A stretch of DNA of 64,000 bases from the IMG/VR virus record IMGVR_UViG_3300027819_000006; one strand, given 5' to 3'. Shown in pieces: positions 37,670 through 59,084 of the stretch. How positions within the stretch are numbered: the first letter of the stretch is position 1; each line of letters opens with the position of its first letter. Position numbers and translations under genes: made by a program. The notes beneath the pieces are model-generated. The model saw nothing but the letters and a program-made list of their open reading frames with translations, did not search any database and was not told the DNA's origin. Source of the stretch: a virus. Taxonomy: Duplodnaviria; Caudoviricetes.

Positions 37670-38359
37670 TCAAAAATTACACTGACATCCTTTTAACATT
37701 AAAATGTCCATATCGCAAATACAGCCCCAAACTCTATTTGTTTTCTCTAATTGAGCTTTTATGGATTCTTTAACATTTGTAACTTCATATCGAGAAAAAA
37801 TTTTATCTGATAATTCTGCATGAGGTATAAATGGAATATAGATACTTAATATATGTCTATTATCTAATCTCTTACAAATAGAATCTATAAACTTAGTTTC
37901 ATCATCTATTTCAAAATCTAACATTCTTGTTTCAGCTGTTATTGCTGTAGCTATTACTCTATCTTTACAAGTTTCTTTGTCATACATAAATAAAACTCTA
38001 GATGGCAAATTCATACTTTCATAACCATATATTATATTTTTATTTGTCATAATTTGAAGATGATAAACTAATTTTATTATATGACTATACAGTTTATTTG
38101 TGTAATCTGAAGTAAAACATCGATTTAATTGATCATAATCAGCCAAGAATCTTTCTTGATTTCTTAATAGAGTTATAGCTGTGCATTTAGAATATTCTGT
38201 CAGTTTTTCATATTCTTCACAATTTAAAACATTTTTCAATTTAATTTTAAGTTCTTCTATAGCATTCTCATTCAAACTATAACATTCTATATCAACTATC
38301 ATATGCTGTATTTTTGAATATATGCATTTCAACCAAGGATGTATTATATCTATATTCAT
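37670..38359 (-). CDS. hypothetical protein with C-terminal CxC-x8-G-CxC tag
   Basis: ends CICDMDILMLKGCQCNF. Confidence 0.75.
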   Translation of the reverse strand: MNIDIIHPWLKCIYSKIQHMIVDIECYSLNENAIEELKIKLKNVLNCEEYEKLTEYSKCTAITLLRNQERFLADYDQLNRCFTSDYTNKLYSHIIKLVYHLQIMTNKNIIYGYESMNLPSRVLFMYDKETCKDRVIATAITAETRMLDFEIDDETKFIDSICKRLDNRHILSIYIPFIPHAELSDKIFSRYEVTNVKESIKAQLEKTNRVWGCICDMDILMLKGCQCNF

Positions 38360-38362
38360 TTT

Positions 38363-39148
38363 CTATTTAACAAATTGTTCTAAAATTTGTCCTTTCGTTA
38401 TGTTATATTGTTTTAGCAATTGCTTTTTATATTCCATATTATGCGTGTGCAGTAAAGAAATTTCAGGTGTCCACTCTAGCCGGGGTAATTCTTTGCGCTG
38501 CATGTCGTGCCAATAATATTCTAATAGATGTCGATTTATTTCTATATTAAACTCTTCATCATTTAGCATTGTGAAATTTATGATTCTGTCTCTAAGTGTA
38601 TATAGAATATATTCTTCTGTATTTTCAAATCCTAAAGATGTTGGTGCGTATTTATCAATTAGCTTTTGCTGTCTTAATCGAAAATCACAAACTTTAAATT
38701 GAAAAGGTAATATTCTGTGCAAAAATTTTCTTCTAAACATCATACAATCTGGTGCTACCAATTCATTGCAATCTATTCCTGCTGAGAATTGCTTACCAGA
38801 ATCTATAAAATTTTGAACAGCTTTTACAAATCCTTGTTCTGTTAAAAAATGCACATCAAAATTATGTATAACTACTGTATCTCTGTAGCCAGCATTAGCA
38901 TAAGACAGCCCTTCGTTTATTTCTGAAAGTGCTCCTGTAGCAGGATTTTTGTCAATCGGCATAGAAATAAATGCATTCTCAAATACTCCTGAGCAAATCT
39001 TTGTAAGATCTCCGTTGTAAACTGTTACATGTTGCAGATCTTTGTTGAAAGAATAGTTGCTAATTATATCAATTCCAGTATAATATTCAAATACTTTGTT
39101 GACAGATCCAATTCTGATCAAAATTATATTTTTAGGATCAAACATCAT
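38363..39148 (-). CDS. glycosyltransferase-like (GT-A) protein
   Basis: VIHNFDVHF, PDCMMFRR, LLHTHN; island context. Confidence 0.5.
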   Translation of the reverse strand: MMFDPKNIILIRIGSVNKVFEYYTGIDIISNYSFNKDLQHVTVYNGDLTKICSGVFENAFISMPIDKNPATGALSEINEGLSYANAGYRDTVVIHNFDVHFLTEQGFVKAVQNFIDSGKQFSAGIDCNELVAPDCMMFRRKFLHRILPFQFKVCDFRLRQQKLIDKYAPTSLGFENTEEYILYTLRDRIINFTMLNDEEFNIEINRHLLEYYWHDMQRKELPRLEWTPEISLLHTHNMEYKKQLLKQYNITKGQILEQFVK

Positions 39149-39620
39149 AATCTATAGCAATCATTTCACTTTGTTTAGTATTATATACATATTGCAACTT
39201 TCCAGATTTATATGAAGCAAAAATAACATCCAATCTTCCATACTCTATCAAATGACTTTCAGTAGCTGTATATGGATAGCTTTTTAGATCTGATAATCCA
39301 AGCTTATACTTGAATGTATTGAAATCATTCACTTCTTCATATTTCATTTTTACTGTTGTCATTTTAGCAACCCTTTATTTAAATTATGGAACTATAATAC
39401 TACTTGTCATCTGTCTGTGCATTGCTTCATATATGAGTTCTGGTATCTGCAAAGTTCTACAATGCGAACATACAATTGTAGGAATGGGTCCTAAATTGAA
39501 ACCCATTAGTTTCTCATCATCTTTCTGTTCATAACCACAAGCTACACATATAAAATGATCAGATGCTTCATTTTCTTGTTTTTCTTCCGAGCCAGGGAAT
39601 TGTAATATATTGTCAGCCAT
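39138..39620 (-). CDS. two small hypothetical proteins (39138-39362; 39384-39620 Zn-ribbon)
   Basis: CVAC..CSHC in the second ORF. Confidence 0.55.
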
Positions 39621-40191
39621 TTTCCTCCACTATTTTTTCAATGATGCCGTGTATCAAACAAATGCTTGATATCTCATGAACTCCATATCCACTTTCTTTA
39701 AACCATATAATATCGTCAAAACACTTTTTAGATTCTTCATATGTATTTTGAAATCCAAATATTCCAATTGTTTTGCACTTAACAGATTTTGCATATGCAG
39801 AAGCATGTAAAATATTCTTAGACTTACCACTAGAAGATATAGATATTAGTAAATCATTTTCATTTAGATTAAATCTTTTTAGCCATTCAATATAAATATT
39901 TTCAAAAGTGTAATCATTGCCAAAACAAGTTAACATAGACCCAGAAGACATTACATGAGCTTCTATATTACATCTTTTAAATAGATCATTTGCTATATGA
40001 TCGCAGTTGCTCCAAGATCCCCCATTTCCTGCAAGGAATATTCTTTTACTTGATTTTATAGCATTATATAAATTATATACAGAGTTAATATTTGTAGAAC
40101 ATACAAATTTATTTACTTCACACGAGAACTTTGCTACAAAATCATTTACTTCATAAACATCTTTCAGCTGTTCTTCCATACTACTTTGCAA
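39613..40191 (-). CDS. gmhA: phosphoheptose isomerase (SIS domain)
   Basis: AGNGGSWSNCDH, NDYTF, ISSSGKSKN, HE. Confidence 0.85.
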   Translation of the reverse strand: MQSSMEEQLKDVYEVNDFVAKFSCEVNKFVCSTNINSVYNLYNAIKSSKRIFLAGNGGSWSNCDHIANDLFKRCNIEAHVMSSGSMLTCFGNDYTFENIYIEWLKRFNLNENDLLISISSSGKSKNILHASAYAKSVKCKTIGIFGFQNTYEESKKCFDDIIWFKESGYGVHEISSICLIHGIIEKIVEENG

Positions 40192-40858
40192 CTCTTGTAG
40201 TTACCTTCACTTCTTTTCTGTTCAACACTCTGTCTTTAACTTCTGATACTACTTGAGCAAGATGTGCTTCAACATGTTTTACATATTCAGCAACTACTAG
40301 TTCTTCTGCTTTAGCCTTGCTTTCTACATCTTCAAAAACATGTGTAAATGCAGGAACTACATGCAGTGCATCTTCTACTAGCTCTACTACTTTAACTTTT
40401 ACTTTCATTTTGTTTCTCCATAAATTTAGTTGTGATTTCTTGTGTCATAGTTCTATATTCGTAAAAATCTGACTCTGGTCTTTTGATAATTTGCAATAAT
40501 GGTTGCTCTATACTATTAGATATTAAACAGTAGTGCACAAAAGTATATGGATCTATAAAGTGTTTACCAGTTTTAAGATCACTTCTTCCATCGAACTGTT
40601 TAAAATCTTTTACTATAGCTGTAATTACTTTTTTAGGAAATGCTTTTATCATTTAGTTAGTATGTTGTCCTGTTTGATTTCTGCTAATTTTGTTTCTTTA
40701 AACTGTTCTACATTGATATTTTTTTTAAATAGCTCATATTTAAATCGAACCATATCTTCTATGCCTATCATAGCTTCTTTTACAGCATCTACTTTATGCA
40801 ATGCTTCTAAAGTTAATAGAGCTTCAGCATCTAAATTTGCATCTTTTAATAGATTCAC
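40181..40858 (-). CDS. three small hypothetical proteins (40181-40408, 40392-40652, 40649-40858)
   Basis: coupled ORFs. Confidence 0.5.
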
Positions 40859-41021
40859 ACATTTGCTCCTATTTAGTTAGAATATCTTGTTTAATTTCTG
40901 ATATTAGTTTACTTATTTCTTGTAGCTTTAATAAAGTTCTTTCATTTTTTAAACGTAATTTTTCATTTTCTTCATTTAAATTGAAATTATCTTGTTGTAG
41001 CTGCTTTAAATCTTTTTTCAT

Positions 41022-42020
41022 CTATTCCTCAATATTGAAAATAATACGACTCCCATAAGAATCTATCTCAAAATGTTCTTCTGTCAAGCCTAAGCTATTC
41101 ATTGAAGCTCTTACATTCTCTTGTTTGTCTGGTTTGGCGTATAGTATTAAATATCCTCCCCCACCGGCTCCTGTAATCTTACCACCTGTTGCTCCAGCTT
41201 GTATTGCTGAATTATAAAGATTGTCAATATGCTCATTGCTTATATTACTACTAAATGTTTTCTTTAACTCCCAGTTCTTAGACATTGTTCGGCCAATAGC
41301 ATCAAAATCTCTATTTTTCAAACTAACATTTAGATGTTTAGCTAATTCTACATTTAGATGCATTGCTTCTATTACTTTTTGATTGTCAATTAAATTGCTA
41401 TTCTGTTCATTGAGCACAGAAGATGATTCTCTAGTTATTCCAGTATTAAACATTAAAATGTTTCTAGATATGCTTTTTAGCTCATCATCTGAGAAGTCAT
41501 ATCTCGATATTCCTACATAGTCATTCTTCTCAAATAGAAATCTGTTGAAACCACCAACTGATGCCCAGTATTGATCCTGAACACCGATATTACGGTTGCA
41601 CATGTTTATCTCTATATGACAAGCCTCTTTAGCTAATCTTTCTTTAGAAACTTGCTGACCATTCATAGTATATAAAGCATTCAATAGAGACACTAAAAAT
41701 GAGCTAGAAGACCCAAGTCCTGTGCCCTTTAAAGAAATATCAGAAAAACAAACTATTTCTAGTCCACAATCTATATTTAGATATTTTAAAGTATTTTTAA
41801 CAAAATCATGCTTTATCGAATTTATATTATTTACATCAACTATTTCATTTTCTGAATATTTAAGAAATATCTTATTATCTTTTCTTTTCTTAACCAGAAC
41901 ATATGTAAATTTATTTATAGAAAAACCTATACATATTCCGCCATATTTTTTAAAATATATTGGAGAATCACTTCCTCCACCGCAGAGTCCCAAACGAGTC
42001 GGAGATTTACTTAAAATCAA
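41022..42020 (-). CDS. hddA: D-glycero-alpha-D-manno-heptose-7-phosphate kinase (GHMP)
   Basis: PTRLGLCGGGSD, GTGLGSSSS, GVQDQY, GGKITGAGGGG. Confidence 0.9.
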   Translation of the reverse strand: MILSKSPTRLGLCGGGSDSPIYFKKYGGICIGFSINKFTYVLVKKRKDNKIFLKYSENEIVDVNNINSIKHDFVKNTLKYLNIDCGLEIVCFSDISLKGTGLGSSSSFLVSLLNALYTMNGQQVSKERLAKEACHIEINMCNRNIGVQDQYWASVGGFNRFLFEKNDYVGISRYDFSDDELKSISRNILMFNTGITRESSSVLNEQNSNLIDNQKVIEAMHLNVELAKHLNVSLKNRDFDAIGRTMSKNWELKKTFSSNISNEHIDNLYNSAIQAGATGGKITGAGGGGYLILYAKPDKQENVRASMNSLGLTEEHFEIDSYGSRIIFNIEE

Positions 42021-42412
42021 GTTTTAAAATCCTTATCTTTCTAAATCATTTAGATATTCAACTAATTCGCTATATTTCTTAAACCATAGAGCTACGTTGT
42101 CTTCTATCATTTTACCTACAGCTTTTAAAGATTTTATCTGAGCTTTATCAAATTCTGAATCTCCATCTTTTGTGAAGAAAAAGAATAGAGTTTTATATGG
42201 TATCTTATTACTATCGTCTACAACTTCAGCTATAGAATAAACTCCAACTATCTTGGGAGTTATGTACTTTATCACAAATTTTTCTTTGTTTAATTTCTTC
42301 TGCTTGACATTCTGGAATCCAATCTTCTACTACAGGATTAAAATAATCAATTTTTAACTGATTAATTTATTTCTCCATTTGCTATCTGTACAAGTACCCA
42401 TTAATGCTACTT

Positions 42413-43468
42413 TCATTGTTTACTCCTTATAGATTCTACTGTATCTTTTATCATATCGTTGATATTCTTTTTATGGTGCCAATCAAAATATTTACTTGTT
42501 TTTGTAATATCTGCTAAAGTTATTTGCGCTTGTTTCACAACGTCCGGTAAATAATCTATATTAGGCCACAGTAATTCATCATCTTTACCAGTGACATATT
42601 TTGCTACTAATCTGTATATTTCATACACACTGTAATTTTTGTTAGTGCCCACATTAAATGTTTCTGAATCTTTCATACATATTCTTTTTTCCAAAGCTAG
42701 CATGTGTAAATCTACAACATCATCTATATGAATGTAATCTCTTCTTCTACAGCGATCCCCATAGATTATTGGGTTTTCATCATTCAGCATTTTTGATGCA
42801 AATGCGCCCATTACAGGAGGGACATCACGCAAGATGTTCTGAGACTTGCCGCAGACATTGAATAATCTGAATAAAGTAGATCCAAATCCAAAATCTTTGC
42901 TCATAGACCTGACAAATTGTGATGCTGCCATTTTAGTTATAGCATAATAACCCATTGGAGTAGATGTATTAGGTGCTTGATTTTCATTAGAGGGATATGT
43001 AGAACCATAATTATATACTGTCCTTGACTCTATATCTACAACTTCTTTTGCTTCTACATATGGTATACTATCATATTCAGCACTTGTATCTGCAAAGAAA
43101 AAGTGTTTACATTCAAACTCTTTAGCTATTTTTAGCATCTGAATTGTACCATTAACATTTATATCTATAGCTTTTTCTGGATGATCATTACAGAAATTTA
43201 ATTCACCTCGTGCATGGCCACATACTACTGCATCTAATTTATCTATGCGTAATATACAGTCAAGATATTCAAATATAGTGTCATAATTTCTTGCATCTAT
43301 GACAGCAAAATGAAAATTAAGGTTGTCTTGCAAATCTTCTATATTCTTTTTAAAACCACAGCTAAGATCATCTATTCCTATCACATTATAGTTGCCATTA
43401 TTCACTAATCTTCTAGCTAAATGAGAATAGACGAAACCTGCACAGCCAGTTATTAGAATATTTTTCAT
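42413..43468 (-). CDS. NDP-sugar epimerase/dehydratase (extended SDR)
   Basis: TGCAGFVY, YAITK, RLFNVCG, RDYIHIDD. Confidence 0.9.
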   Translation of the reverse strand: MKNILITGCAGFVYSHLARRLVNNGNYNVIGIDDLSCGFKKNIEDLQDNLNFHFAVIDARNYDTIFEYLDCILRIDKLDAVVCGHARGELNFCNDHPEKAIDINVNGTIQMLKIAKEFECKHFFFADTSAEYDSIPYVEAKEVVDIESRTVYNYGSTYPSNENQAPNTSTPMGYYAITKMAASQFVRSMSKDFGFGSTLFRLFNVCGKSQNILRDVPPVMGAFASKMLNDENPIIYGDRCRRRDYIHIDDVVDLHMLALEKRICMKDSETFNVGTNKNYSVYEIYRLVAKYVTGKDDELLWPNIDYLPDVVKQAQITLADITKTSKYFDWHHKKNINDMIKDTVESIRSKQ

Positions 43469-43930: not shown

Positions 43931-44971
43931 TTATGACAAGCTTTTATAAATATCTAATTGTTTTTTGCCCATATCTAGTGCATAGCACATATTTTTCCAA
44001 AGTGATTTTGCATTATTACTAAAATATTCATAATCTACTTTTTTATCTGCAAATGCTTTCATTATTCTTGAATATTCATCTACATCTCCATATTTTGTCA
44101 CGAATCCTGAGTTCTGTATGCATTCTATATGTCCTTGATAATGTAATCCGTAATGACTTATTATTGGTTTACCTCTTGATTGAGCATTCCATATTGCTGA
44201 AGAATTACATTCGCCATCTTTTCTTGAGTGAGTCATCACATTTAGAGTGTTATAAAATCTATTTATTCTGTCTGTATCAATAGATTTATTTATCAATCTA
44301 TAATTTTTAATATTTAGCTTTTCAAATGATTCTTTAGCATATTCTTCTACTCCCATTATAACAAAACAAGTTTTGTCAGTTTCTATTTTAGAGTAAGCTA
44401 ATAAATTTAGATTATCAAAAGTCTGAGGATCTGGTCGACCAATATGACCGAAGACAAAAGTATCTTCGTCTATATTCAGTTCTTTTCTTAAATTTTCATT
44501 ATTCAAAGGATCTTCTACTGGATTTCTTACAACTAAATGATTTGAATCATTTTGCTTATTTACAGCATTTCTAATCCAGCTTGATACATATATTACTTTT
44601 GATATATCTATTGTCTCATCTTGATTTCCAAAAACTGAAGTAGATATAAAATGTTTGCAATGCTGTTTAATTTCTTTTATAAATGGAAACTCTGGAATGC
44701 CCGCAGAATATCTATGAGTAATAAAAGGCTTAATCTCTCTCGTTATATAAACTAGCTCTGGTCTTGATCCATAAGCAAATACTCTATCTTTACCCAATAT
44801 TTTTGAAAATTGTTCAAATCTTAAACTGTCTTTATCTGCAGGATAAAATACTGTATGAATAAAATTGCTCTCTTTATCAATAATATTCATGTGTTTACAT
44901 AGCAGTAATAACATCTCTTGTGTCCCGCCAATTCCTAAGTCTCCTATATGATGAAGTACTGTTTTTTTCAT
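43931..44971 (-). CDS. GT4-like glycosyltransferase
   Basis: GIGGTQ, FGHIGR, DGECNSSAIWNAQSRGKPIIS. Confidence 0.85.
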   Translation of the reverse strand: MKKTVLHHIGDLGIGGTQEMLLLLCKHMNIIDKESNFIHTVFYPADKDSLRFEQFSKILGKDRVFAYGSRPELVYITREIKPFITHRYSAGIPEFPFIKEIKQHCKHFISTSVFGNQDETIDISKVIYVSSWIRNAVNKQNDSNHLVVRNPVEDPLNNENLRKELNIDEDTFVFGHIGRPDPQTFDNLNLLAYSKIETDKTCFVIMGVEEYAKESFEKLNIKNYRLINKSIDTDRINRFYNTLNVMTHSRKDGECNSSAIWNAQSRGKPIISHYGLHYQGHIECIQNSGFVTKYGDVDEYSRIMKAFADKKVDYEYFSNNAKSLWKNMCYALDMGKKQLDIYKSLS

Positions 44972-46020
44972 ACTTCATCCTTATAGATATTTTCTTTTAT
45001 TTTTATAGCTCTTTCTTTATAATATTCATCTAAATCTCTATCTAGATATTCGCCAAAAACTATATGATATATTTGAGATTGCTCAGGATATAGTTCGACA
45101 AATTTAGATATTTTTTCTCTCGATTTATTTAAAGTATATTCGCATTTCACTTCCTCTATTCTGATCAAATTATTATTTTCATCATAAATATGAAAATCAG
45201 GGATATATTTGCATGTCAATAAATCATATTTTATTTCTTCATAAGTCCATATTATATTTTTAGAATCTAAGAATATTGCTCGTTTAACTTCATATGAAGA
45301 TCTCATATTATATCCATTGTATGGATATCTGCTTTTTACTTTTATAGTGTTTTTTCTACATTTTTCACATATTCCATTTTTATTACCTTTATGAATAGGT
45401 GCAGGGCACAATGAACAAAAAACACCATGATTCTTAACTTTATCTTTAACATTAGAGCATTCTAATATTATATTTGGATAATCTTTTCTTATATGAATAG
45501 CATTCATATATTTATGTTTTGTCATCATATGTCTAGTCAGTTGCTGTTTCACTTTACTGCATATTGGACATATTAAATAATCAACGAATTCCTGTCCTGT
45601 CAGCAACTGTTTTATAATATCTAATCTTATATTTTTATTATGTTCAACTATATGCTGTTTGCTTTTTGATGCAGAGCAACTTCTGCATAAATCGCTTCTG
45701 CCAGTAGTTTCTCCACCACAATTAGAGCAGTAATATTTTTTAAGTTTTCTGCAATTATTACATTCTTCGAAACCATTAGATATAGTCCTTTTTGGAAGTA
45801 CTTTTCCACATGATATGCAGCTAATATCTTTTTTAAAATCTTCATCTCTGCATTCGACACACATATCAATATTTTTTAATACAGTATGATAATGAAGTAT
45901 TTTATTGCATGATATGCAACGAGCTCTGCTATTCAATCTACAATTTTTGCATATTTTTAAACCAGCTGCTATTGTATGATGATGAAGATTTTTATTGCAT
46001 TTTTCACATTTCTTATTCAT
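44968..46020 (-). CDS. Cys-rich PD-(D/E)XK homing-type endonuclease
   Basis: repeated CxxC; MRSSYE..YIPDFHIY..EEVKC. Confidence 0.75.
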   Translation of the reverse strand: MNKKCEKCNKNLHHHTIAAGLKICKNCRLNSRARCISCNKILHYHTVLKNIDMCVECRDEDFKKDISCISCGKVLPKRTISNGFEECNNCRKLKKYYCSNCGGETTGRSDLCRSCSASKSKQHIVEHNKNIRLDIIKQLLTGQEFVDYLICPICSKVKQQLTRHMMTKHKYMNAIHIRKDYPNIILECSNVKDKVKNHGVFCSLCPAPIHKGNKNGICEKCRKNTIKVKSRYPYNGYNMRSSYEVKRAIFLDSKNIIWTYEEIKYDLLTCKYIPDFHIYDENNNLIRIEEVKCEYTLNKSREKISKFVELYPEQSQIYHIVFGEYLDRDLDEYYKERAIKIKENIYKDEV

Positions 46021-48095: not shown

Positions 48096-49695
48096 CTTTA
48101 TAAATCCTTTCTTTAACTTTTTTAGCTGTTAATTCATATTGAAGCTCTTCTCTTTGCAAATCTCTTTTCTGTTTATCTATTGATTTTCTATGGATTATAT
48201 GATTGCCGATCAATATAAATTCTTTTTTAGCTCCAATAACTTGCTCATGCGTTTCACCACGAAACTGACATACGTTTTTATTAAATAATCTTTTTTGAGC
48301 GTCATGTTCATAATTTATCCATTTAAATCCAGACATATTCCACCCTCTAGATTGACAAAATTCTAATAATTCCTGATCAGATAGTCCATCTAAAATATTC
48401 TTTCTTGGAATAGAAATACAATCTATATTTTTATTTTGCATCTCCCATATGCACCAGTTTATCTGATTTAGAAAATGATGTTCATATGTTTCATCTGAAT
48501 CTATAAATAGAATATAATTATTTTTAGCATTCTCTAAAGATGCATTTTTTTGTATTTCAAAGTTATCTTTCCACTCTCTTTCTATAACTTTTACTTTATC
48601 TACTCCAACTTTATTTTGAAAGCTATATAGAATATTTTTAGTTCCGTCAGAAGATTTGCTATCTATTACAGATACAAATTCATTATTTATATATAGCTCT
48701 ATATTATCTAAAGTTCTTTTAATAGTTTCTTTGTCACTTCTTGCAATGTTGCAAATACTATATTTTACATCTGGCTTTTTATGATGTTCATACAAATACA
48801 TAAACTTGTCAAACACATCTTGAACTTCTGCATTTACATTAGTTTCTACATATAAATTATTGTAAATTTCTGAACTTCTCTGTGGCAAGTGCACTGGCAA
48901 GAAAAACGTGTTTTTTGTATAGATGCATACAGTTGGTATTCTATTTCTTGCTGCAACTTCCCACAGCCAACTATTGGTTGCTATACATCCTTGAGCGTAT
49001 TCTTGAATTAGTGCTATAGTTTCTTCTACAGACAATCCCATAGCATCAAAATATTCTACTTCTTTATTCAATGCTTCTTTTAATCCATAATCTTCATCGT
49101 TTATTCCTACTAGCATTGGAGTAAATTCATTTTCATATAACTTTCTACAAATAGAAACCCATTTTTCTTTTGATAAAAATCTACCCTGCTGTAAATCAAC
49201 ATCAAATCCCTCAGGAGAACCACTAGATGTGATAGGATTAATAATGACATATTTATATTTTAATCGTAATTTTAAATTTTTACATCTATTTGGTTCATCC
49301 AAATATTTTCTTAGTCTTATATGAGGGTAATATTCAGTTTTATATTTATAGAAATCTTCCATATCATAATTTGAAATGAAAGAGGGAGTTTCATTGTTAA
49401 AAATTTCAGCACAGAAACATGCATCAATGAGCATGTCGCCATCTTTCAATATAGATTTTTTCAACCATTCTTTGAAATATTCTACTTGTGAATGATTTGT
49501 GAAATTTTTTATTACAGAAGATTTATATCCTTCTCTTGTAGCTTGTTCTTTACATAAAATAGGACTTTTACCCCAGCCGCCAAAATAGAAAACTATCTCA
49601 TGATCTGAATGTTTTTCTTTTATAGATTTACATCTAGTCAAGAAAGATAGAAAATCTCCATAGCCTGCCATATGTAAAATCACTATTTTATTCAT
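48088..49695 (-). CDS. GT9 (heptosyltransferase-like) + GT2 fusion protein
   Basis: GYGDFL N-terminus, SWLWEVA; second domain IDSKSSDGT..FIDSDE..HEQV. Confidence 0.8.
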   Translation of the reverse strand: MNKIVILHMAGYGDFLSFLTRCKSIKEKHSDHEIVFYFGGWGKSPILCKEQATREGYKSSVIKNFTNHSQVEYFKEWLKKSILKDGDMLIDACFCAEIFNNETPSFISNYDMEDFYKYKTEYYPHIRLRKYLDEPNRCKNLKLRLKYKYVIINPITSSGSPEGFDVDLQQGRFLSKEKWVSICRKLYENEFTPMLVGINDEDYGLKEALNKEVEYFDAMGLSVEETIALIQEYAQGCIATNSWLWEVAARNRIPTVCIYTKNTFFLPVHLPQRSSEIYNNLYVETNVNAEVQDVFDKFMYLYEHHKKPDVKYSICNIARSDKETIKRTLDNIELYINNEFVSVIDSKSSDGTKNILYSFQNKVGVDKVKVIEREWKDNFEIQKNASLENAKNNYILFIDSDETYEHHFLNQINWCIWEMQNKNIDCISIPRKNILDGLSDQELLEFCQSRGWNMSGFKWINYEHDAQKRLFNKNVCQFRGETHEQVIGAKKEFILIGNHIIHRKSIDKQKRDLQREELQYELTAKKVKERIYKDE

Positions 49696-50705
49696 TTATT
49701 TAACTCTATTGTCAAGAAATTATCTGCATTTCTAATATTATAATTTAAATGAGACATTATCCATCTATCTAAACAAATATTAGTATCTTCTATTTCTTTT
49801 TCTGCATATACTATCGTAGGATTTTGCATGCAAAGAGTAAAATCTTTATCTAAGTAGTGCTTTCCAGTATGAATAAATAAAAGTTTATTTTTAAGTATGT
49901 CTGTAACACCAGTATAAGAATATATGTTGCATTTTCTATGATTTAATGATATAGCTCCATATCTTTGAATACTATTATAATTAGAGTATTTATCTGGTCT
50001 AAAACTTTTTCTTTGCTCTATAGAAGCCAATACTTTATGTGAACATAATAGATTTATAGTATCTAAACTTTTATTTTCTGACCACTTACTATACAAATGA
50101 TCTATGTTGTCGATTGAATTGACATGTAATTTATATGAGCAAGCTATAATTCTATCTATGCAAGAAGATTCTATATCATAAAATGAATTTTCAGCGATTA
50201 TAGTAGAAAATTCAACTTCTGCATCTAATCTATTATATGATTTGAAATTTTTACTAACATCATCTTTAGATATCCATCTCTGTCTTAACTTTCTAGTCTG
50301 AATAGAAATCTCTCTATCTATTATTGAGACCTTGTTACATTTACAACCATTCAAACTTAAATCTCTTATACTGCAGCTACAGCTATTTTTATAATATATT
50401 GGAATCGTTCTATTCGTATTAGTACATATCCGTATGTTAAACAAGTTATGACAAAAACTTCTATACATTCTAACCCATATTGACAATGCTAAAGATTTGA
50501 AATATTCATCAGCATAATCAGATTTATTCAGAACACTAAAATTATCTAATATTCTCTTTATTGCAATTTTATGATATAATGATTTATTGAAACCCCTTAA
50601 AAATGACTGCTCTATTAGACTTATCCATTTTTCTGGTTTGTTATTATATTCATCTAATAGCTTATTTTCATAATCTTCTATATTAATTTTGCTCTGCATT
50701 GACAT
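49692..50705 (-). CDS. hypothetical protein with internal CxC-x8-G-CxC motif
   Basis: CSCSIRDLSLNGCKC at 50337-50381. Confidence 0.7.
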   Translation of the reverse strand: MSMQSKINIEDYENKLLDEYNNKPEKWISLIEQSFLRGFNKSLYHKIAIKRILDNFSVLNKSDYADEYFKSLALSIWVRMYRSFCHNLFNIRICTNTNRTIPIYYKNSCSCSIRDLSLNGCKCNKVSIIDREISIQTRKLRQRWISKDDVSKNFKSYNRLDAEVEFSTIIAENSFYDIESSCIDRIIACSYKLHVNSIDNIDHLYSKWSENKSLDTINLLCSHKVLASIEQRKSFRPDKYSNYNSIQRYGAISLNHRKCNIYSYTGVTDILKNKLLFIHTGKHYLDKDFTLCMQNPTIVYAEKEIEDTNICLDRWIMSHLNYNIRNADNFLTIELNK

Positions 50706-51067
50706 CCAATAGACATTAGAATATTCAAATCACAGCTACATTTCATATCATCAAACATTTTAACTACTTCTACATAATCTTCATCTTTTTCAAAATCTAG
50801 AGCATCATCTTCATCAAATATAGCATACTCATAATAGTCTTCTAACATTATATTATATGTAGTCTTATTCATAGCATATATTATTATTTTTGATATTTGA
50901 TCATTATCAAACTCAGCATTCAAACAATAAGTAATGTCCCAACTATTCAAACTAGCTGCATCAAAAATAGATTCTATACTAGAATAGATGTCATTTTTAT
51001 CAGAAGTACTAGTTAATTCTGTGTCTTTATAGTAGAGCTGTAGAATATCTGTAATATCTAATTTCAT
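50678..51067 (-). CDS. hypothetical protein with C-terminal Cys tag
   Basis: CSCDLNILMSIGCQC. Confidence 0.7.
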   Translation of the reverse strand: MKLDITDILQLYYKDTELTSTSDKNDIYSSIESIFDAASLNSWDITYCLNAEFDNDQISKIIIYAMNKTTYNIMLEDYYEYAIFDEDDALDFEKDEDYVEVVKMFDDMKCSCDLNILMSIGCQCRAKLI

Positions 51068-51736: not shown

Positions 51737-51857
51737 TTTTGTTCTCTATATACAAAACTTTCTAATTCATTATCATACAAAAATATTAATCTGTATTTCA
51801 ATTTCGAAATTTCTTCTTCTGTTTTTATTGGTATGATAGATATTATCTTTTCTGATA

Positions 51858-52433
51858 CTAAATTTGATTTTTGCATTGGCAACCTTTTAATATTAAAGTG
51901 TCTATGTCACAAGTGCATCTATTAATTAAGGGTATTTTTATATGTAATTTATGCATTCTATCAGACCTTACTATAGCGTCACATTCTTCTATCAGTTTTG
52001 CAGATTTATTTTTACCATTTTTATACAAGTGCATTGCATCTTCAGATGGAGAAATTACAAACAATGGAGCAAAAATTTTTTGAATTTCATTGAGATTATT
52101 TTTATCATAATTACTTTTTTTGAATTTTGCTATATCTTGAGAAGTTTCTATGTTAGTTTTTAATCTTCTTTCTATCATAGGTACTCCGATAAAATCATCT
52201 ATACAAACATTTAACATTATATCATTCATCATATTATCTTCAGAAGTAATTTTCCATATGTTTATATTTGATTGACATTCAAAACAATCACAGCTATGAA
52301 TTTTATATTCTGGCATTACATGCTGACTATAATATATGGCAGCATACTGATTAATTACAGAATATATAAATCCTTTTACAAATGATTTAGATTCACTTTG
52401 AAAATGTTTATTAACATACTCTTCTAATGTCAT
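51858..52433 (-). CDS. hypothetical protein with C-terminal Cys tag
   Basis: CTCDIDTLILKGCQC. Confidence 0.7.
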   Translation of the reverse strand: MTLEEYVNKHFQSESKSFVKGFIYSVINQYAAIYYSQHVMPEYKIHSCDCFECQSNINIWKITSEDNMMNDIMLNVCIDDFIGVPMIERRLKTNIETSQDIAKFKKSNYDKNNLNEIQKIFAPLFVISPSEDAMHLYKNGKNKSAKLIEECDAIVRSDRMHKLHIKIPLINRCTCDIDTLILKGCQCKNQI

Positions 52434-53479
52434 TTCAATCCTCTTTTCAATAAGATACTATCAACACATTCATCAATTATTTCTATTACAGTTTTCTCTT
52501 GTTTTCCAAAAAAACTATGCAATAATGATGTATCACCAAGTCTTCTTTTTACCAAATTTGGATCATGTTCTTCATATATAATTTTGCTTCTAGTGCAGTC
52601 AATTCCTTTGCTTGTAAGCAACTGCTCTATTATTTCTGTTAATTGTAATACAGATGTTTCTTTACCAGAACAAGCATTTATAAAGCCCTCAAAATAGTCT
52701 GGATTCTTCTTACAAATACCTGATTGTGCAGCTAAAATGTTATATCTAGCTACATCTTCAGCATGTATAATATCTAGTGTCTGCTGTCCATTTCCATAGA
52801 TAGTTATATCTTTTCCATCAATGAATGCATTTATAAATTTAGGTACAATCTGCACATAGATATTTTTATCTGACTGTCTTGGACTAGTTATATTAAAAGG
52901 TCTAAAAGATATAAACTTTAGTCCATCATTATCTGAATATGATTTTGCTATATGCTCTACAGATATTTTATTAGCTCCATATAGCAATGAATTATTTCTG
53001 AAATGATGTCTTTCATCTGTAGGAAAATAATCTGAATTTCCATACACAGAAGCAGATGAAGCAAATATTACTTTCTCTACTCCATATCTCAAAGACAACT
53101 CAAACATGTTGACAGAACCCATTACGCCACATTCTATTGCTTCGTATCTTGCTGATCTACTATCAAGAGTTAAAAGCGACGCTTGATGAAATACATAATT
53201 TGGTCTGAAAACATCAAATATGAAATCCATCTTTCTATAATTCGTTATATCATCTCTATAAAAATGTATTCTATTATCATTTTCAGAAGCATATTCATAG
53301 GCCCTGTCTAGATTAGACAGATTGCCATTATACATATTATCAATTACGACAATATTAGAACCTTTGTAGTATTTAGCTAATAACTCTACTATATAACTTC
53401 CAACATTTCCCGCGCCGCCAGAGATTACAGATGTAGTGCAATCTTTCTGCTCTATCTGTTTGATGTTACTATTCATCAA
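52430..53479 (-). CDS. NDP-sugar epimerase/dehydratase (extended SDR)
   Basis: SGGAGNVG, FASSASVYG, YGANK, FRPFN. Confidence 0.92.
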   Translation of the reverse strand: MMNSNIKQIEQKDCTTSVISGGAGNVGSYIVELLAKYYKGSNIVVIDNMYNGNLSNLDRAYEYASENDNRIHFYRDDITNYRKMDFIFDVFRPNYVFHQASLLTLDSRSARYEAIECGVMGSVNMFELSLRYGVEKVIFASSASVYGNSDYFPTDERHHFRNNSLLYGANKISVEHIAKSYSDNDGLKFISFRPFNITSPRQSDKNIYVQIVPKFINAFIDGKDITIYGNGQQTLDIIHAEDVARYNILAAQSGICKKNPDYFEGFINACSGKETSVLQLTEIIEQLLTSKGIDCTRSKIIYEEHDPNLVKRRLGDTSLLHSFFGKQEKTVIEIIDECVDSILLKRGLK

Positions 53480-53763
53480 CCTCCACTATCGTCGTCTTCA
53501 TCATCTGATTCTTCATCTTCAGAATCAAGATCTGAATCTTTGTCTTTATAGCCATGATAAACATGTTCAGCATCTTCAAATCCCCATTCTAACATTGTCA
53601 ACATGTTCTCTAATTCTTCTTTTACTATTTTAAGTTTACTTCTGTAATACTTGACCGAGCCTTCAGATCTTCTCAAATCTATCATGTCTAAAATGTCTGA
53701 TGATTCTTCTGACAATACATTTAGAGCATCTTCTAATCTATTGCTGATTCTCACTGAGGCCAT
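53476..53763 (-). CDS. acidic-tailed hypothetical protein
   Basis: 95 aa, D/E-rich C-terminus. Confidence 0.6.
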   Translation of the reverse strand: MASVRISNRLEDALNVLSEESSDILDMIDLRRSEGSVKYYRSKLKIVKEELENMLTMLEWGFEDAEHVYHGYKDKDSDLDSEDEESDDEDDDSGG

Positions 53764-53764
53764 T

Positions 53765-54111
53765 TTAATTTCTCCTGTTTTGTTTGCATTGACAGCCTTG
53801 TAGCATTAATGTATTCATGTCGCATAAACATTTTCTGCTATAATCAGATTCAAAATGAAAAAATGTATCAGTTGGTTTTTTCATGGGTTGAGTAACTGCA
53901 AATTCTTCTATTATATAGCTAGACTATGTTTTTATCAGCTCTTTCTAAGTATTCATTAAATATTTCTATTGGAGCATCTTCTATGGATGGAAAAGTAACA
54001 GACATCTCTATATCGTTGTTTACATAGAGCATTCTGTTCCAATCTCTTTTAAAATTTCTGTTGCTTAATTCTTTACAGCGCTAATATTTCAATTTCAGAT
54101 TGCTCAGTCAT
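53765..54111 (-). pseudogene. frameshifted ORF with C-terminal Cys tag (not in ORF track)
   Basis: CLCDMNTLMLQGCQC at 53786-53830; two frameshifts upstream. Confidence 0.65.
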
Positions 54112-54499
54112 TTTTCAGCTCTTTCATTCTATCTGAATAGCACCCACATCCATATCTAGTTAAATTATCTACACTACAAATACATTCTGTAAATTCAAAG
54201 AAATCATCTAATATAATTGATTCAAGTGTTACAGTTATTTCTGGTATTTCATTAGGTTCTGTTTTGCTTGTTTCATATTTAAGATAGAAATATAGAGGTT
54301 TGAAATTAACTTCTTGGCATTTATCTCTTAAAGTTGTTATCTGTCCAACAAAATTTTTCGGTGCTGGCATTTCATATGTACCATTATTTTGTTTGAACTG
54401 TAATTCTTCTTTTGATATTTCTTTTCTGAGAAATTGACTCAGTAATGTATCTGATTGATCTTTATAAGATTTAATTGCTCTTGCTTTTGATACTGTCAT
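54104..54499 (-). CDS. hypothetical protein with C-terminal Cys tag
   Basis: CICSVDNLTRYGCGC. Confidence 0.65.
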   Translation of the reverse strand: MTVSKARAIKSYKDQSDTLLSQFLRKEISKEELQFKQNNGTYEMPAPKNFVGQITTLRDKCQEVNFKPLYFYLKYETSKTEPNEIPEITVTLESIILDDFFEFTECICSVDNLTRYGCGCYSDRMKELKND

Positions 54500-55414
54500 A
54501 ATAGCTCCTTGCTTTTATATAGTTTTTCTAGTTCTTTTAAATGATTGAACTTCAGCTCATTATTTATCAATTTTTCTGACATTTCAGAATATATTTTATG
54601 CCAATCTTTCAGATATGCTGAACTAACTGTTAAGTTAATTTCAACATCTTTATCTTGTTTTGCCATTTTAGTAAGTTTTTTCAGATCAAGTTCAGAATTA
54701 GAATTCAAATAAAACAACATTGGTCTGATATTATTTCCTAAAAATCTAGATAAGAATGCTCCTTCTAATTGTTTTTCGGGAGTAGCTTTACCTATAGGGT
54801 ATTTATTCTCAGGATTATATGTCTTGCCTTTCTCTAAAGGTTTTATAGCATTAAATTCTTCTAATGTTATTTCACGCAAATCAAACTTGAATTTCTCTTT
54901 TCCTTGTTGTAACCTATTTAAGAAATTATAAGCATATTTATTGAAATCGTCTAAAACAGCTGAATAAGGTTTTTGTTTAGTATTAAATCCTAAAAGTTCT
55001 TTTTCATTATACTTTTCGTCATATTCAGAATATCTAAATTCTTTAATCTGATAACCATCCATTCTATCTCTGATCATTTCTTCTATTTGCTGTCTTGAAT
55101 CTGTAAAAACAATTGTATCTCCATTTTTATATTTGTTTTTATGTATTTCTTCATTTTGAGAGCTTCTTTTACTGTCATAACTATAGTCTATCTCCTATGA
55201 ATTCTTTCTTCTGTTTTTTAGCATATTTTTCCATTACTTGTTCATCACTCATTTCATCAAATCCAAGTTCACACCATCCAAGGTACCAAAATTTCTTGCT
55301 ATGCCATTTATTTTTAGTATGATAAGGATTGATGCTTACTGATAAGCCAATATTTTTTATTGATTTACCTTTTAGATAAGCTGAAATCTTCTTGTTTTCT
55401 CTCTTTTTGTTCAT
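54496..55414 (-). CDS. hypothetical proteins (54496-55077, 55181-55414)
   Basis: coupled ORFs. Confidence 0.55.
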
Positions 55415-55908
55415 AGTTCATTCCTTCTGTATGATCCACAAGTACATCCCTGCAATATCAATGTATCAATGTTGCATGTGCACTTTTTAATTATTGATTG
55501 CATGTTTTCTGCAGTTATTGGTCCTAATTTGTATTCTGCTACTATGCTTTTTGCTACATTGCAACAAATAGATTCATGAAGATTTTCTAAATCATATAGT
55601 CTATTTTTTAGAATGTAATCATAATGTTCATTAATTTTCATAGTTGTAATATCATTATTGAACAATTTATCTGATTTTGTTAAAGAAGCTTCATCTACTG
55701 TTTCTTTAAATAGAATTATATTATCAATATTTTCATGAATATCTACTTTTACTCTATCAAGAGCAACTTTTTGGGTCCTGTAAGTGAAACATAATTCTAA
55801 ATAAAATTTAATATCTTCTATACAAGCATAGCATAAATCATATTCTTTATAATTTTCATCAATTTCAAAATATTTAGAATGATCTACTGTTTTATTAGCA
55901 CATCTCAT
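55411..55908 (-). CDS. hypothetical protein with C-terminal Cys tag
   Basis: CTCNIDTLILQGCTC. Confidence 0.7.
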   Translation of the reverse strand: MRCANKTVDHSKYFEIDENYKEYDLCYACIEDIKFYLELCFTYRTQKVALDRVKVDIHENIDNIILFKETVDEASLTKSDKLFNNDITTMKINEHYDYILKNRLYDLENLHESICCNVAKSIVAEYKLGPITAENMQSIIKKCTCNIDTLILQGCTCGSYRRNEL

Positions 55909-56819
55909 TTAATTTTCTCAATTTCTTGTAAGAATCTCTTAACTGCATCTTTCCAATCTGGCATCTGTTTTAGCTCTTTGCATTTTCTCAATCTATAGCA
56001 ATCTAAAGCTGAAAAATTTGGTCTCTTGACATTGGAGTAAAACTCTGAAGCTTTTACTGCTTCTAATAAATTAACATCCCAACCCATCAATTCGTAAATA
56101 TATTTGGCAAACTTATACCAGCTCAGAACTCCTCTGTTAACTATATTCCATGTCCCATATTCTTGTACATCATGAATTAGCATATCTACTAAAACTTCAC
56201 TAATGTCTTTAGTATATGCTATGGAGATAATCTGGTATGACACTACTTTTGTTACATCTTTTCCATTATATTTGTTCATGATCATATATGGAAAATTGCT
56301 CCAATTTTTAGCTGAACTACCTTTCTTGCCAAATAGAGATGATACTCTTATATTAAAATATTTATTGCATATAGCTTTCAGAGTCATTTCTCCAGCAGCT
56401 TTTGTTACTCCATAGAAATTCAGAGGATCTACTTTTGCAAATTCTGTGAATCCTTCAGATGTTAGAGCTTGAGATGAATCCGAGCCAAGCACATAGTCAG
56501 TACTAAAATTAATGAGCAGACTATCGTATTTATTTGCCAACTGAGCCATATTTTTTACAGCAACTATATTGACCTCGCAAGCTAAAGATGGATTATTTTC
56601 AATTTGTTCAACATTATGACATGATGCTCCGTTAATTACGATGTCAGGACGTAAATCTTCAAAATAGTGCTCTATAAGTTTAGGATCAGTAACATCTAAT
56701 TCTTCTCTATTTCTAGCTATAGTTAAAAATTTATCTCCATGCAGTTTTAGATTACTATAGAGATCAGAGCATAATTGCCCATCGCTGCCAGAAATTAAGA
56801 CTCTCTTTACTAAACTCAT
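55905..56819 (-). CDS. rmlD: dTDP-4-dehydrorhamnose reductase-like
   Basis: SGSDGQL, FSTDYV, YGVTKAAGE, RPNFSALD. Confidence 0.92.
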   Translation of the reverse strand: MSLVKRVLISGSDGQLCSDLYSNLKLHGDKFLTIARNREELDVTDPKLIEHYFEDLRPDIVINGASCHNVEQIENNPSLACEVNIVAVKNMAQLANKYDSLLINFSTDYVLGSDSSQALTSEGFTEFAKVDPLNFYGVTKAAGEMTLKAICNKYFNIRVSSLFGKKGSSAKNWSNFPYMIMNKYNGKDVTKVVSYQIISIAYTKDISEVLVDMLIHDVQEYGTWNIVNRGVLSWYKFAKYIYELMGWDVNLLEAVKASEFYSNVKRPNFSALDCYRLRKCKELKQMPDWKDAVKRFLQEIEKIK

Positions 56820-57400
56820 TACTTAGTTTCCCTCTTCCAATCCCAACCCATTATATCGACAGAAGCTCTATATTCATCAGATCCGTTATATTTGTTATTT
56901 ATAAAGTAGAGTAAAATAGCTTCTTCATTTGTAAAATTAAAAGAGCCATGTTGTAATCCTCTTCTCACTATTACAGGGCCGTTATTAGTGTTCCTATCAG
57001 ACAAATAAAACCATTTACATACTGGTCCATTTATAAAATCAGAATATAAATCTTTATTCTGTTTAAAATAATCTGAATTCATAAAATCAAACCACTGATT
57101 AACTAATTTTAGTCGTTGAATTTTTGAATAATCAGATGTTTTTTTAATGAAATCATCAAGAGTTTTATTATCATATCTCTCTCTATATAAATCATAAACT
57201 GCTTGACTATAATTTGGAACATTACAAATTCCAATTTTTAGAGAACCTTTGAGCACAATTTGATAATCATCTTGAGCATAATGCATGTGGAAAGCTGCTA
57301 GTGTACCTGGATAAACTATACTGCAATTTATGTCTCCCTCTTTCATAGAAGAAAATATGTCACAGTATCTCTGAGCTCTATCATCTCCACCTGCTCGCAT
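56819..57400 (-). CDS. rmlC: dTDP-sugar 3,5-epimerase-like cupin with internal insertion
   Basis: DDR, AFHMH..QDDY, GLQHG; adjacent to rmlD. Confidence 0.7.
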   Translation of the reverse strand: MRAGGDDRAQRYCDIFSSMKEGDINCSIVYPGTLAAFHMHYAQDDYQIVLKGSLKIGICNVPNYSQAVYDLYRERYDNKTLDDFIKKTSDYSKIQRLKLVNQWFDFMNSDYFKQNKDLYSDFINGPVCKWFYLSDRNTNNGPVIVRRGLQHGSFNFTNEEAILLYFINNKYNGSDEYRASVDIMGWDWKRETK

Positions 57401-57639
57401 TAGATCAATTCCTTTCTACAAATACACCCTTTTAATGTCAAAGTATCTATATCACAGACACATTCTATATTATTAGTAGCAATTTTATTAGCAAATCTTT
57501 CAAATTTAAAGTTATTCCTCATCACACTTCTCATGCCATTTTCTATATACCACTCAGAATAATTTTTTACTGATCTTATTTCATAGCCACTATTTTTAAG
57601 ATATCTCTGAATATCTTCTGGTAATTTACTTTCATTCAT
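57400..57639 (-). CDS. small protein with C-terminal Cys tag
   Basis: CVCDIDTLTLKGCIC. Confidence 0.65.
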   Translation of the reverse strand: MNESKLPEDIQRYLKNSGYEIRSVKNYSEWYIENGMRSVMRNNFKFERFANKIATNNIECVCDIDTLTLKGCICRKELI

Positions 57640-57654
57640 AACGCACCTCTTAAT

Positions 57655-58119
57655 TTAATATAGCATCGAAACTTTTAAAGCATTATCGAGCACTTCGTCA
57701 AGCTTGTCAATCGTCAAATTACGCTTCTTATTATAAACTGCTACTTCATCAGCTGCTTCTAATCTTTCTTTATCAGATAATTCTTTATTTCTTCTAGCAT
57801 CCTCAAGCGACCACAGCTTCTTCGTGTAAGTATTCAAATCTGCTATCAAATCTAGAAAATAATCATCTTGTTCTGCATGTACTGTTTTATCGTAATTCTT
57901 ATATTTTTTATACGTAGCTGGTCTATCCCAATTAATTATACTGACAAGTATAGATGATAATTCTTTTATTAACCAGCCTCTCTGTTCTAGAAGTCTGTCT
58001 ATTACTTCTAATTCTTCTTCAGATCTTGCTGTTTCTCTGTTTACTTTAATTCTTTGCTCTAATATGCAAAGCTGATCAATTATTCCACCTAAAGTTTGAA
58101 TTTTATAACACTCCATCAA
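57655..58119 (-). CDS. helical protein, DUF4254-like
   Basis: GGIIDQLCIL..K; LWSLED.R; NKKRN..IDKLD. Confidence 0.5.
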   Translation of the reverse strand: MMECYKIQTLGGIIDQLCILEQRIKVNRETARSEEELEVIDRLLEQRGWLIKELSSILVSIINWDRPATYKKYKNYDKTVHAEQDDYFLDLIADLNTYTKKLWSLEDARRNKELSDKERLEAADEVAVYNKKRNLTIDKLDEVLDNALKVSMLY

Positions 58120-58750
58120 CTAATTCATCTATTTCATGCAACATGCCGTGATTGACATGTTTAATTCTGAGTAATACAGTAGATAGTTCTAAAATTTTAT
58201 TATCTTGATCTTTCAATTCTGCTAACAGTTTTATCTCTCTTGAAGTCAGAGAATTCTGATACATGAATATCTTTACATCATGAAAGAAATCATTTAGAAT
58301 TTTTCTTTGTTTCCATCTTTTCAAAATTTTCTCTTTTTATTACAATTTTCTATTTCTTTTAGCATTTTGTTAAATTGAATCTTGTTTATATGAATGTAGC
58401 TGCTAGCAGATAGTGAATCTATGAATAGTTCATAGTAGTTATTATCTTTTTCTGAGTCTAAAATTGTATGAGAATGAAAAATCATATTAGTATAACAACC
58501 AATCTAGCATCAAAAAATGTAATATTCTATATGTAACAGATATTCTGTGACTAAATTTTATGTTGTATGTTTTGTCATCTATTTGCTGCATAGAAAATTT
58601 CAGCTTTTTATCAACTAGAAAATTATAATTGCCAAATGTTTCATGCTTGTCATGCATGATAGCATATTTTATTTTCTCTTTCAATCTATAATACACTATT
58701 TCTGATATATCTATATTATAGATTTTATTTTCATAGTTTATATGAATCAT
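58103..58750 (-). CDS. small hypothetical proteins (58103-58324, 58487-58750)
   Basis: minus-strand ORFs. Confidence 0.5.
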
Positions 58751-58757
58751 CTATCTA

Positions 58758-59084
58758 TTATACAAAAGTCATTTCAAATTCTTTTTTGCATATACAACCC
58801 TGCAATATCAGAGTTTGCATGTCGCATGTACATATGTCATTAATTGTACTTATTCCATTATTTTTATCTTTGCAATTGTGCAAACATTCAAAGATATATT
58901 TTATGTTATCTTCTGTATATTTGTGAGTGTCAGGAAAATGTATAGCATCTCTATAACAAAATTCACATGTCAATCTCAGCTTTTCTTTATAGTTGTCCCA
59001 AGTGTCTAATTTTGAATTATATGTGAAACCCAAATGTTTTAAAAATTTTTGTATAGTAGCTATATCTTTATTCATTTCCAGCAT
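58758..59084 (-). CDS. hypothetical protein with C-terminal Cys tag
   Basis: CTCDMQTLILQGCIC. Confidence 0.7.
   Translation of the reverse strand: MLEMNKDIATIQKFLKHLGFTYNSKLDTWDNYKEKLRLTCEFCYRDAIHFPDTHKYTEDNIKYIFECLHNCKDKNNGISTINDICTCDMQTLILQGCICKKEFEMTFV

Follow-up and report, generated by a model that had tools for sequence, protein, structure and literature searches.

The SecA-like metal-binding domain is a portable C-terminal module of about 22 residues, with the ligand pattern CXCX8C[HC], which is carried on a flexible linker (bioRxiv 10.1101/613315). It binds one Zn or Fe, and by means of this domain SecA, YecA, YchJ, and some MetAPs are docked onto SecB or ribosomes (10.1101/613315). 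SEC-C (PF02810) is the closest analogue of an element that recurs in a 64,000 nt stretch of the phage record IMGVR_UViG_3300027819_000006, the whole of which is referred to here as the window. The window comes from a jumbo phage contig, about 272 kb long and with a GC content of 29%, from groundwater metagenomes (ENA ERZ27253369, k141_1484514), and it holds a long glycan island, in which sugar-nucleotide and glycosyltransferase genes are gathered. The element, called the tag here, is the 15-residue sequence C-x-C-x8-G-C-x-C, which is encoded nine times in the window, by open reading frames (ORFs) that are otherwise unrelated. We infer that the tag is a metal-binding Cys4 module that serves as a portable handle, a proposal for which, taken as a whole, the chances are roughly even.

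All nine of the 45 nt sites encode C-x-C-x8-G-C-x-C on the minus strand, at the places given in the initial annotation of the window, while none was found in 200 mononucleotide shuffles. Relaxed and half-motif patterns (CxC-x4-L-x3-G; L-x3-GCxC; CxC[DSN][ILMV]xxL) recover exactly the same nine coding-strand sites, so that this strand holds no decayed copies. As had also been noted, the tag is near the C-terminus in eight cases, 2–11 residues from the stop, and internal in one. The copies and their carriers, c1 to c9, are as follows.

37679..37723, minus strand: tag copy 1, CICDMDILMLKGCQC, 2 residues before the stop of c1
37670..38359, minus strand: carrier c1, an ORFan of 229 aa of no family, downstream of a conserved 261-aa island gene
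50337..50381, minus strand: tag copy 2, CSCSIRDLSLNGCKC, internal, residues 109–123 of 337
49692..50705, minus strand: carrier c2, 337 aa, the stop of which overlaps the start of the GT2 gene
50696..50740, minus strand: tag copy 3, CSCDLNILMSIGCQC, 5 residues before the stop, with the start codon of c2 within its tail
50678..51067, minus strand: carrier c3, an acidic ORFan of 129 aa
51873..51917, minus strand: tag copy 4, CTCDIDTLILKGCQC, 4 residues before the stop
51858..52433, minus strand: carrier c4, 191 aa, directly downstream of an epimerase gene with a 4 nt overlap
53786..53830, minus strand: tag copy 5, CLCDMNTLMLQGCQC, 6 residues before the stop
53765..54032, minus strand: copy 5 locus, a 39-codon tagged ORF (53765–53884) preceded by a 37-codon ORF (53919–54032) in another frame
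54140..54184, minus strand: tag copy 6, CICSVDNLTRYGCGC, 11 residues before the stop
54104..54499, minus strand: carrier c6, an ORFan of 131 aa
55438..55482, minus strand: tag copy 7, CTCNIDTLILQGCTC, 8 residues before the stop
55411..55908, minus strand: carrier c7, 165 aa, directly downstream of an RmlD-like reductase gene with a 4 nt overlap
57418..57462, minus strand: tag copy 8, CVCDIDTLTLKGCIC, 5 residues before the stop
57400..57639, minus strand: carrier c8, 79 aa, with a weak relative, P0022 (Z = 5.3), that is also tagged
58788..58832, minus strand: tag copy 9, CTCDMQTLILQGCIC, 9 residues before the stop
58758..59084, minus strand: carrier c9, 108 aa, the orthologue of which, P0011, retains the tag

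The carrier with the internal tag, c2, has no homologue among 5.8 billion proteins and may have arisen by fusion of a small tagged ORF with a body downstream of it. Copy 5 had been assigned to an ORF interrupted by a frameshift. The two frames at this locus can be joined, in that a +1 shift at GTC TAG C would make of the mini-ORFs one tagged protein about 90 aa long, but two separate mini-ORFs are also a possible description, and it is the 37-codon ORF that is called in the public assembly. The locus may therefore represent either a carrier that has suffered a frameshift or decay or a pair of mini-ORFs, and the frame break itself could reflect pseudogene formation, an error of sequencing, or a programmed frameshift.

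Between the nine copies, the mean pairwise identity is 0.71 at codon position 1 and 0.74 at position 2, against 0.42 at position 3, and the 45 nt flanks of the copies have a mean pairwise identity of 0.31–0.34. All four glycine codons (GGA, GGT, GGC, GGG) and both cysteine codons (TGT, TGC) are used. The fact that the first two codon positions are conserved, with the third near background and the flanks at background, indicates that selection is on the peptide, in agreement with the claim that conservation is at the protein level. The genes form a compact, operon-like array in which the copies immediately precede the following gene, as might be the case for a promoter, a terminator, or a recombination or homing site at the 3' ends of genes. 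Against such a DNA or RNA element, however, stands the codon-position pattern, on which it is rejected as far as sequence analysis goes, as well as the occurrence of the same peptide in genomes of 26% to 68% GC. If the tag were instead the conserved end of a family of paralogues, the carriers would be expected to be related elsewhere, yet they share nothing else, are of 56–337 aa across all genomes, and have different domains. Either explanation, a nucleic acid element or a paralogue-family end, is scarcely credible.

The statement that the carriers have nothing else in common was borne out. With the motif masked, no pair of window carriers is matched by BLASTP at better than E = 0.26, and no within-genome pair of carriers rises above Z = 3 in Smith-Waterman comparisons against shuffles. 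An ordinary paralogue family is rejected on this lack of whole-length homology and on the differing domains present (PrkA, a deviant Walker A, Zn ribbons). The carriers include a P-loop ATPase, a PrkA-like protein, several Zn-ribbon proteins, and many ORFans, and there are additional CxxC pairs in several of them. Among 28 carriers from other phages, a Pfam domain (PrkA C-terminal) was found in one and a weak PHROG match in one. Separately from the tag, c8 and c9 both start with IQ(R/K)(Y/F)LK..G(Y/F). The tag is retained in the orthologous carriers of relatives (c9/P0011, c8/P0022, c10/L012), the bodies of which have strongly diverged. A few tags are internal or N-terminal, and in P0007 there are two in tandem on one protein, but the modal end of the tag is 3 residues before the stop, and 2–14 residues follow the C-terminal tags. 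In the eight residues that precede the tags of other phages, 71% are disorder-promoting, against 56% elsewhere. Neither a match to a known domain nor homology along the whole length of the carriers, the two outcomes named beforehand as grounds for abandoning the claim of a shared tag, was found. There is thus very little doubt that the tag is a portable protein module under protein-level selection.

A tenth copy, CECDMSTLILYGCKC, is present in the same genome on a protein of 226 aa, c10 (locus L053, 6172–6852; about 139.5–140.2 kb in the ENA record), where the tag is 8 residues from the C-terminus. It is about 24 kb past the end of the window, so that this phage has at least 10 copies. There is no further copy in record positions 124–164 kb. 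The c10 protein begins MYLEISGRRSGKTT, with a deviant Walker A (SGRRSGKT) of a kind known from terminase-type ATPases, and its gene adjoins gp25-like baseplate genes. The orthologue of c10 in a related phage, G001, is also tagged, but is located in the glycan island there.

In an exhaustive search of 1.84 billion representative proteins, a profile built from the nine window copies gave 26 hits at E < 1e-3, of which six are proteins of this genome and about 20 are small foreign proteins tagged near the C-terminus. One hit, P0002, was discarded as a low-complexity artefact. Most of the foreign tags read CxC[SD]xxxLMxxGCxCG, after which comes either G-[IK]-stop or x-[FIM]-x-R-E. In IMG/VR, a degenerate DNA pattern built for the CxC[SD]xxxLMxxGCxCG consensus identified 23 loci, and a second, which required neither the Met nor the trailing Gly, identified 8, while the same fixed bases one nucleotide out of register identified none. 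Altogether, the profile and DNA-pattern scans added about 46 unique copies with the core CxC-x4-L-x3-GCxC, mostly on unrelated ORFans. Word-indexed protein searches with c8, c2, and the consensus tag region returned the query itself only.

In 596 Gb of bacterial and archaeal genomes there are 12 matches to the DNA pattern, where about 9 would be expected by chance, and just 2–3 of these 12 are near the end of a real ORF. Among GenBank phages, tblastn placed the tag only in one uncultured 'huge phage' of 595 kb (LR756511); hits in the phiKZ group were noise, being outside the tag. The tag is therefore essentially restricted to viruses. The phages that bear it are large and uncultured and range from 26% to 68% GC, and a T4-type capsid protein (Gp23) is detectable with Pfam in one of the five tag-bearing records checked. 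There is one copy each in the near-complete genomes G003 (373 kb), G004 (390 kb), G005 (167 kb), and G007 (170 kb), and four dispersed copies in LR756511. Three to four copies are present in the fragments G001 and G002 and in locus L004, in each case inside a glycan island, the enzymes of which are 35–47% identical to those of the window, which identifies these three as relatives of the window phage. The tag has thus undergone expansion in the lineage of the window.

Conservation was computed over 55 unique tags, in which C0, C2, L7, G11, C12, and C14 are invariant in all 55. Position -1 is Lys in about 50%, position +3 is S, D, or N, which are classical helix N-cap residues, and position +4 is I, M, or L. 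In the foreign tags, Met at +8 and Gly at +15 each reach about 91%, figures that are partly inflated by the one scan pattern that demanded both, although they hold as well for the hits found with the profile. The window copies are a derived subtype, with I, T, or M at +8 and K, N, or R at +15. The I, L, and M residues of the tag form one hydrophobic face.

AlphaFold2, given a 40-row alignment, predicts the tag with confidence, at a predicted local distance difference test score (pLDDT) of 80.5 overall and 90 in the core, as a coil (CxC), a helix, a coil (GCxC), and a second helix. In the model of the whole of c9, this mini-fold is separate from the rest of the protein, there being an alpha-beta-beta-beta body (pLDDT about 86), a helix, a linker of pLDDT below 50, and then the tag at pLDDT 72–77. 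The body (residues 4–44) has what we take to be a resemblance to HicA/dsRBD-like folds, while Foldseek found no match in the PDB with the c9 model. A structure search with the 30-residue tag model, which is too small for the purpose, returned nothing, and a query of the ESM Atlas yielded nothing of use either.

The four invariant cysteines could be read in more than one way. A hydrophobic segment that might be a signal peptide or membrane segment is present in only one of 56 carriers; the other 55 are therefore taken to be intracellular, where structural disulfides are unlikely. Given four invariant thiols in a reducing compartment, with the two CxC pairs around a capped helix, a tetrathiolate metal site is the simplest reading, and the tag is predicted, with good probability, to bind metal. 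CxC pairs can serve as redox motifs, and four invariant cysteines within 15 residues might alternatively form disulfides or a thiol switch on which the activity or stability of the carrier depends. However, the carriers would be in the reducing cytoplasm, and the spacing and the capped helix are like those of small metal knuckles, so that such a redox module is improbable. The Cys4 motif, together with the in vivo iron preference of SecA-like domains (10.1101/613315), might also point to a [2Fe-2S] or [4Fe-4S] cluster held by one tag, or by two in a dimer. Yet none of the five tag-bearing phage records in which co-occurring genes were sought, three of them at least 91% complete, has IscA (PF01521), and there is no likeness to the cluster-binding motifs of Pfam or NCBIfam, which leaves an iron-sulfur ligand with a low probability.

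Pfam scans, run at E ≤ 1 on 8 carriers of the window and 10 foreign ones and at E ≤ 0.01 on 28 more, placed no known domain at the tag, and scans of the carriers did not find it in PHROGs or NCBIfam. The tag profile matched no chain among PDB sequences at E ≤ 10, though SecA structures are deposited there. Full-text literature searches found no description of the motif. The view that the portable module has no characterized counterpart has withstood the Pfam, NCBIfam, PHROGs, and PDB searches as well as those aimed at SEC-C and SWIM. Judged from these sequence comparisons, the tag is a previously undescribed domain, absent from Pfam, NCBIfam, and PHROGs.

SEC-C resembles the tag as a short, portable C-terminal module on a flexible linker, with a CxC and two more ligands. 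However, the ligand spacing of SEC-C is CXCX8C[HC], with the last two ligands adjacent, whereas that of the tag is CxC-x9-CxC in 55 of 55. In SEC-C there are also a conserved Ser at the second position past the second Cys and a conserved aromatic (Tyr), whereas the tag has S, D, or N immediately after the second Cys and no conserved aromatic. The helix with L-M is particular to the tag, and SEC-C is cellular where the tag is virus-restricted. In a six-frame search of the five tag-bearing records with PF02810 at E ≤ 10, no tag position was matched. On the spacing, the Ser and Tyr signatures, and this search, membership of SEC-C is rejected.

The SWIM zinc finger (PF04434, CxCxnCxH) is likewise a small Zn module found in many architectures, which starts with CxC and ends, after a short spacer, with C-x-ligand. 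Its last ligand is His, followed by a conserved helix, over about 38 positions, while the last ligand of the tag is Cys in all 55. PF04434 matched no tag at E ≤ 10 and did not appear in the Pfam scans, and this candidate too is rejected. Bona fide SEC-C and SWIM motifs are found elsewhere in two of the huge tag-bearing phages (G004, 341805–341855; G003, 259917–259976; IMG/VR), and several kinds of small cysteine module therefore occur side by side in these phages. The T4-type capsid targeting sequence is an N-terminal leader that is cleaved by the prohead protease at (L/I)xE; the tag, which is C-terminal and Cys-based, is not of this kind.

The motif would, on the favoured reading of a metal-binding handle, be the core of a self-contained module of some 20–28 residues that is almost exclusive to large phages. 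Its four invariant cysteines would chelate one metal ion, Zn2+ or possibly Fe, and the metal would pin a minimal fold made up of a CxC strand, an S/D/N-capped helix, a glycine turn, and the second CxC. The I/M, L, and M side chains of the capped helix may pack on the metal site, and a short second helix (G-x-[FIM]-x-R-E) would often complete the module. It would be borne at the C-terminus of otherwise unrelated proteins, on a flexible polar or proline-rich linker, and would lend different bodies one property, either docking to a common partner or metal-bridged association with itself or with others. In most phages there would be a single use, typically on a protein of the replication/recombination block, whereas in the lineage of the window it would have spread to at least 10 proteins, most of them among the sugar-nucleotide and glycosyltransferase genes.

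The large ORFs of the window are all on the minus strand. In addition to ThyA, RNA and DNA ligases, a PARP-like protein, NAD synthase, ClpP, an HNH nuclease, TnpB, and TopIB, they encode the enzymes of the island, among which are a SIS/GmhA-like protein, a GHMP kinase, a cytidylyltransferase, three SDR epimerases/reductases, GT1, GT2, and a GT9-methyltransferase. There are T4-type baseplate genes on the flanking DNA of the same contig. Eight of the window tags are interleaved with the glycan genes, and in this lineage the tagged ORFs are wedged between genes of the sugar pathway, to which they are often translationally coupled, while the glycan enzymes themselves are never tagged. The start codon of c2 (50705) is inside the tail of the c3 tag (50678–50740, minus strand), which makes a gene overlap of 28 nt, and in most tagged ORFs there is an overlap of 1–4 nt with the next gene. 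These overlaps suggest translational coupling through the island.

Three nuclease genes, all on the minus strand, break up this region (36099–37247, 44968–46020, and 59110–59973). The first and third match Pfam NUMOD3, and the first two have a near-identical C-terminal stretch in common, PDF(F/H)IYDENNNLIRIEEVK. The TopIB gene (35110–36045, minus strand) is directly downstream of the NUMOD3 homing-nuclease gene at 36099–37247, and upstream of the latter there is an 83-codon ORF (37352–37603, minus strand) that is a diverged duplicate of the N-terminus of TopIB (compare FFSDPNGRIKQKDKKIAKF with FFSKSNRIKQKDKKASKF). The NUMOD3 nuclease cassette thus appears to be between two copies of the 5' end of the TopIB gene.

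The tags had been placed inside the glycan island. They are concentrated there, but the tenth copy, beside the baseplate genes, is not within it. An association of the tag with glycan islands is found in the window phage, G001, G002, and L004, but not in the single-tag genomes, where the nearest epimerase to the tag is 47–64 kb away (G003–G005). The neighbours of the tag in single-tag phages are instead DnaB helicase and PolA (L022), a PD-(D/E)XK nuclease and Pol III alpha (L013), RecT (L028), RNA ligases (L008, L025), and ThyA, DHFR, RNR, PhoH, and RecA (L002). The association with the glycan island is therefore specific to the lineage of the window.

These surroundings bear on whether the tag might be a substrate for modification, through thioether cross-links made by a radical SAM/SPASM enzyme, as in ranthipeptides, or through S- or O-glycosylation by a glycosyltransferase. 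In the window, a radical SAM/SPASM gene (24665–25870) adjoins a subtilase gene (22798–24111), and eight tags are among glycan genes, an arrangement repeated in the islands of L004 and G001/G002. The precursors of SCIFF/ranthipeptides and QhpC are similar to the tag in having a Cys-rich C-terminal stretch with Asp or Ser beside Cys, and this pair of genes adds to the likeness. They are leader-core peptides, however, whereas the carriers are full-size proteins of 56–337 aa to which no maturase gene is adjacent, the radical SAM gene of the window being 12–34 kb from the tags. The radical SAM enzyme is missing from two of the three near-complete tag-bearing genomes searched (G004 and G005, both at least 91% complete), contrary to the link originally drawn to it, and no NCBIfam model for precursors of ribosomally synthesized and post-translationally modified peptides is matched. 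A ranthipeptide or SCIFF precursor is rejected on these grounds. The distance of the epimerases and the DnaB, PolA, RecT, RNA ligase, and ThyA neighbours in single-copy genomes also tell against a substrate tag, and modification of either kind is quite improbable.

Between the subtilase and the radical SAM/SPASM gene there is no obvious precursor peptide. The subtilase (S8; 22798–25870 region, minus strand) ends in a dockerin-like Ca-binding repeat (NCBIfam 'GC-type dockerin', 33.5 bits), which was considered as a relative of the tag and rejected, as it is an ordinary Ca-binding repeat without Cys.

The position near the C-terminus, and the presence of a phage ClpP in the window, G003, and G004, would be compatible with a signal for degradation or stability, either a degron for a phage or host Clp protease or a C-terminal cap against tail-specific proteolysis. 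ClpP is however missing from the remaining one of the three near-complete genomes (G005), so that the suggested dependence on the phage ClpP is not upheld. Unlike ssrA-type degrons, the tag is predicted to be folded (pLDDT 80–90) and is followed by 2–14 residues, and some copies are internal or N-terminal. An ssrA-like ClpXP degron is rejected for these reasons, and a role in degradation or stability is very improbable. None of radical SAM, ClpP, IscA, the epimerase, and Gp23 is an obligatory companion of the tag.

That the tag is a docking handle for a common partner is possible, but only tentatively proposed, and there are observations that weigh against the favoured reading of a metal-binding handle. 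Outside the core there is little surface conservation (K at -1 in about 50%, a hydrophobic residue at +17, and R-E in the long tail), which makes a weak case for a universal docking surface. When all ORFs of the tag-bearing loci were clustered, no conserved neighbour or co-occurring gene emerged, there being just glycan enzymes within the related lineage and a metallophosphoesterase, and the latter was dismissed as a partner because it is a common phage gene that is far from the tags in this genome. The single copy in most phages, finally, fits an ordinary small domain of one protein equally well.

A stronger proposal would make the tag a genuine addressing code for large phages, the Cys4 knob being read by a dedicated receptor that is either phage-encoded or a universal hub of the host; this is unlikely. 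Encapsulin cargo-loading peptides and the PRANC/F-box-like tails of poxviruses are short C-terminal elements found on many unrelated or fast-evolving proteins. The expansion to 10 copies in this phage is similar, in that one C-terminal element is borne by many proteins. Those elements are without cysteines, however, and their receptors are a shell protein and an SCF ligase, while no receptor is detectable for the tag, and most tag-bearing phages have a single tagged protein.

Were the tag such an addressing code, it would mean that fast-evolving ORFans are wired to one site, such as a glycan-building complex, the replisome, or the virion, in a phage-specific form of protein sorting that would have its parallels in the cargo peptides of encapsulins or the PRANC tails of poxviruses. 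As a shared docking or assembly handle, it would represent a virus-specific organization of accessory proteins, which would explain the ten or more tagged proteins in one lineage. ORFans without an experimental foothold make up most of the proteins of large and huge phages, and a 15-residue signature that is shared by dozens of unrelated ones, in phages that differ greatly in GC and gene content, offers a common entry point to them. Even if the tag should be a mere stabilizing zinc knob, it would be a new domain family that aids phage annotation and a marker for phage contigs in metagenomes.

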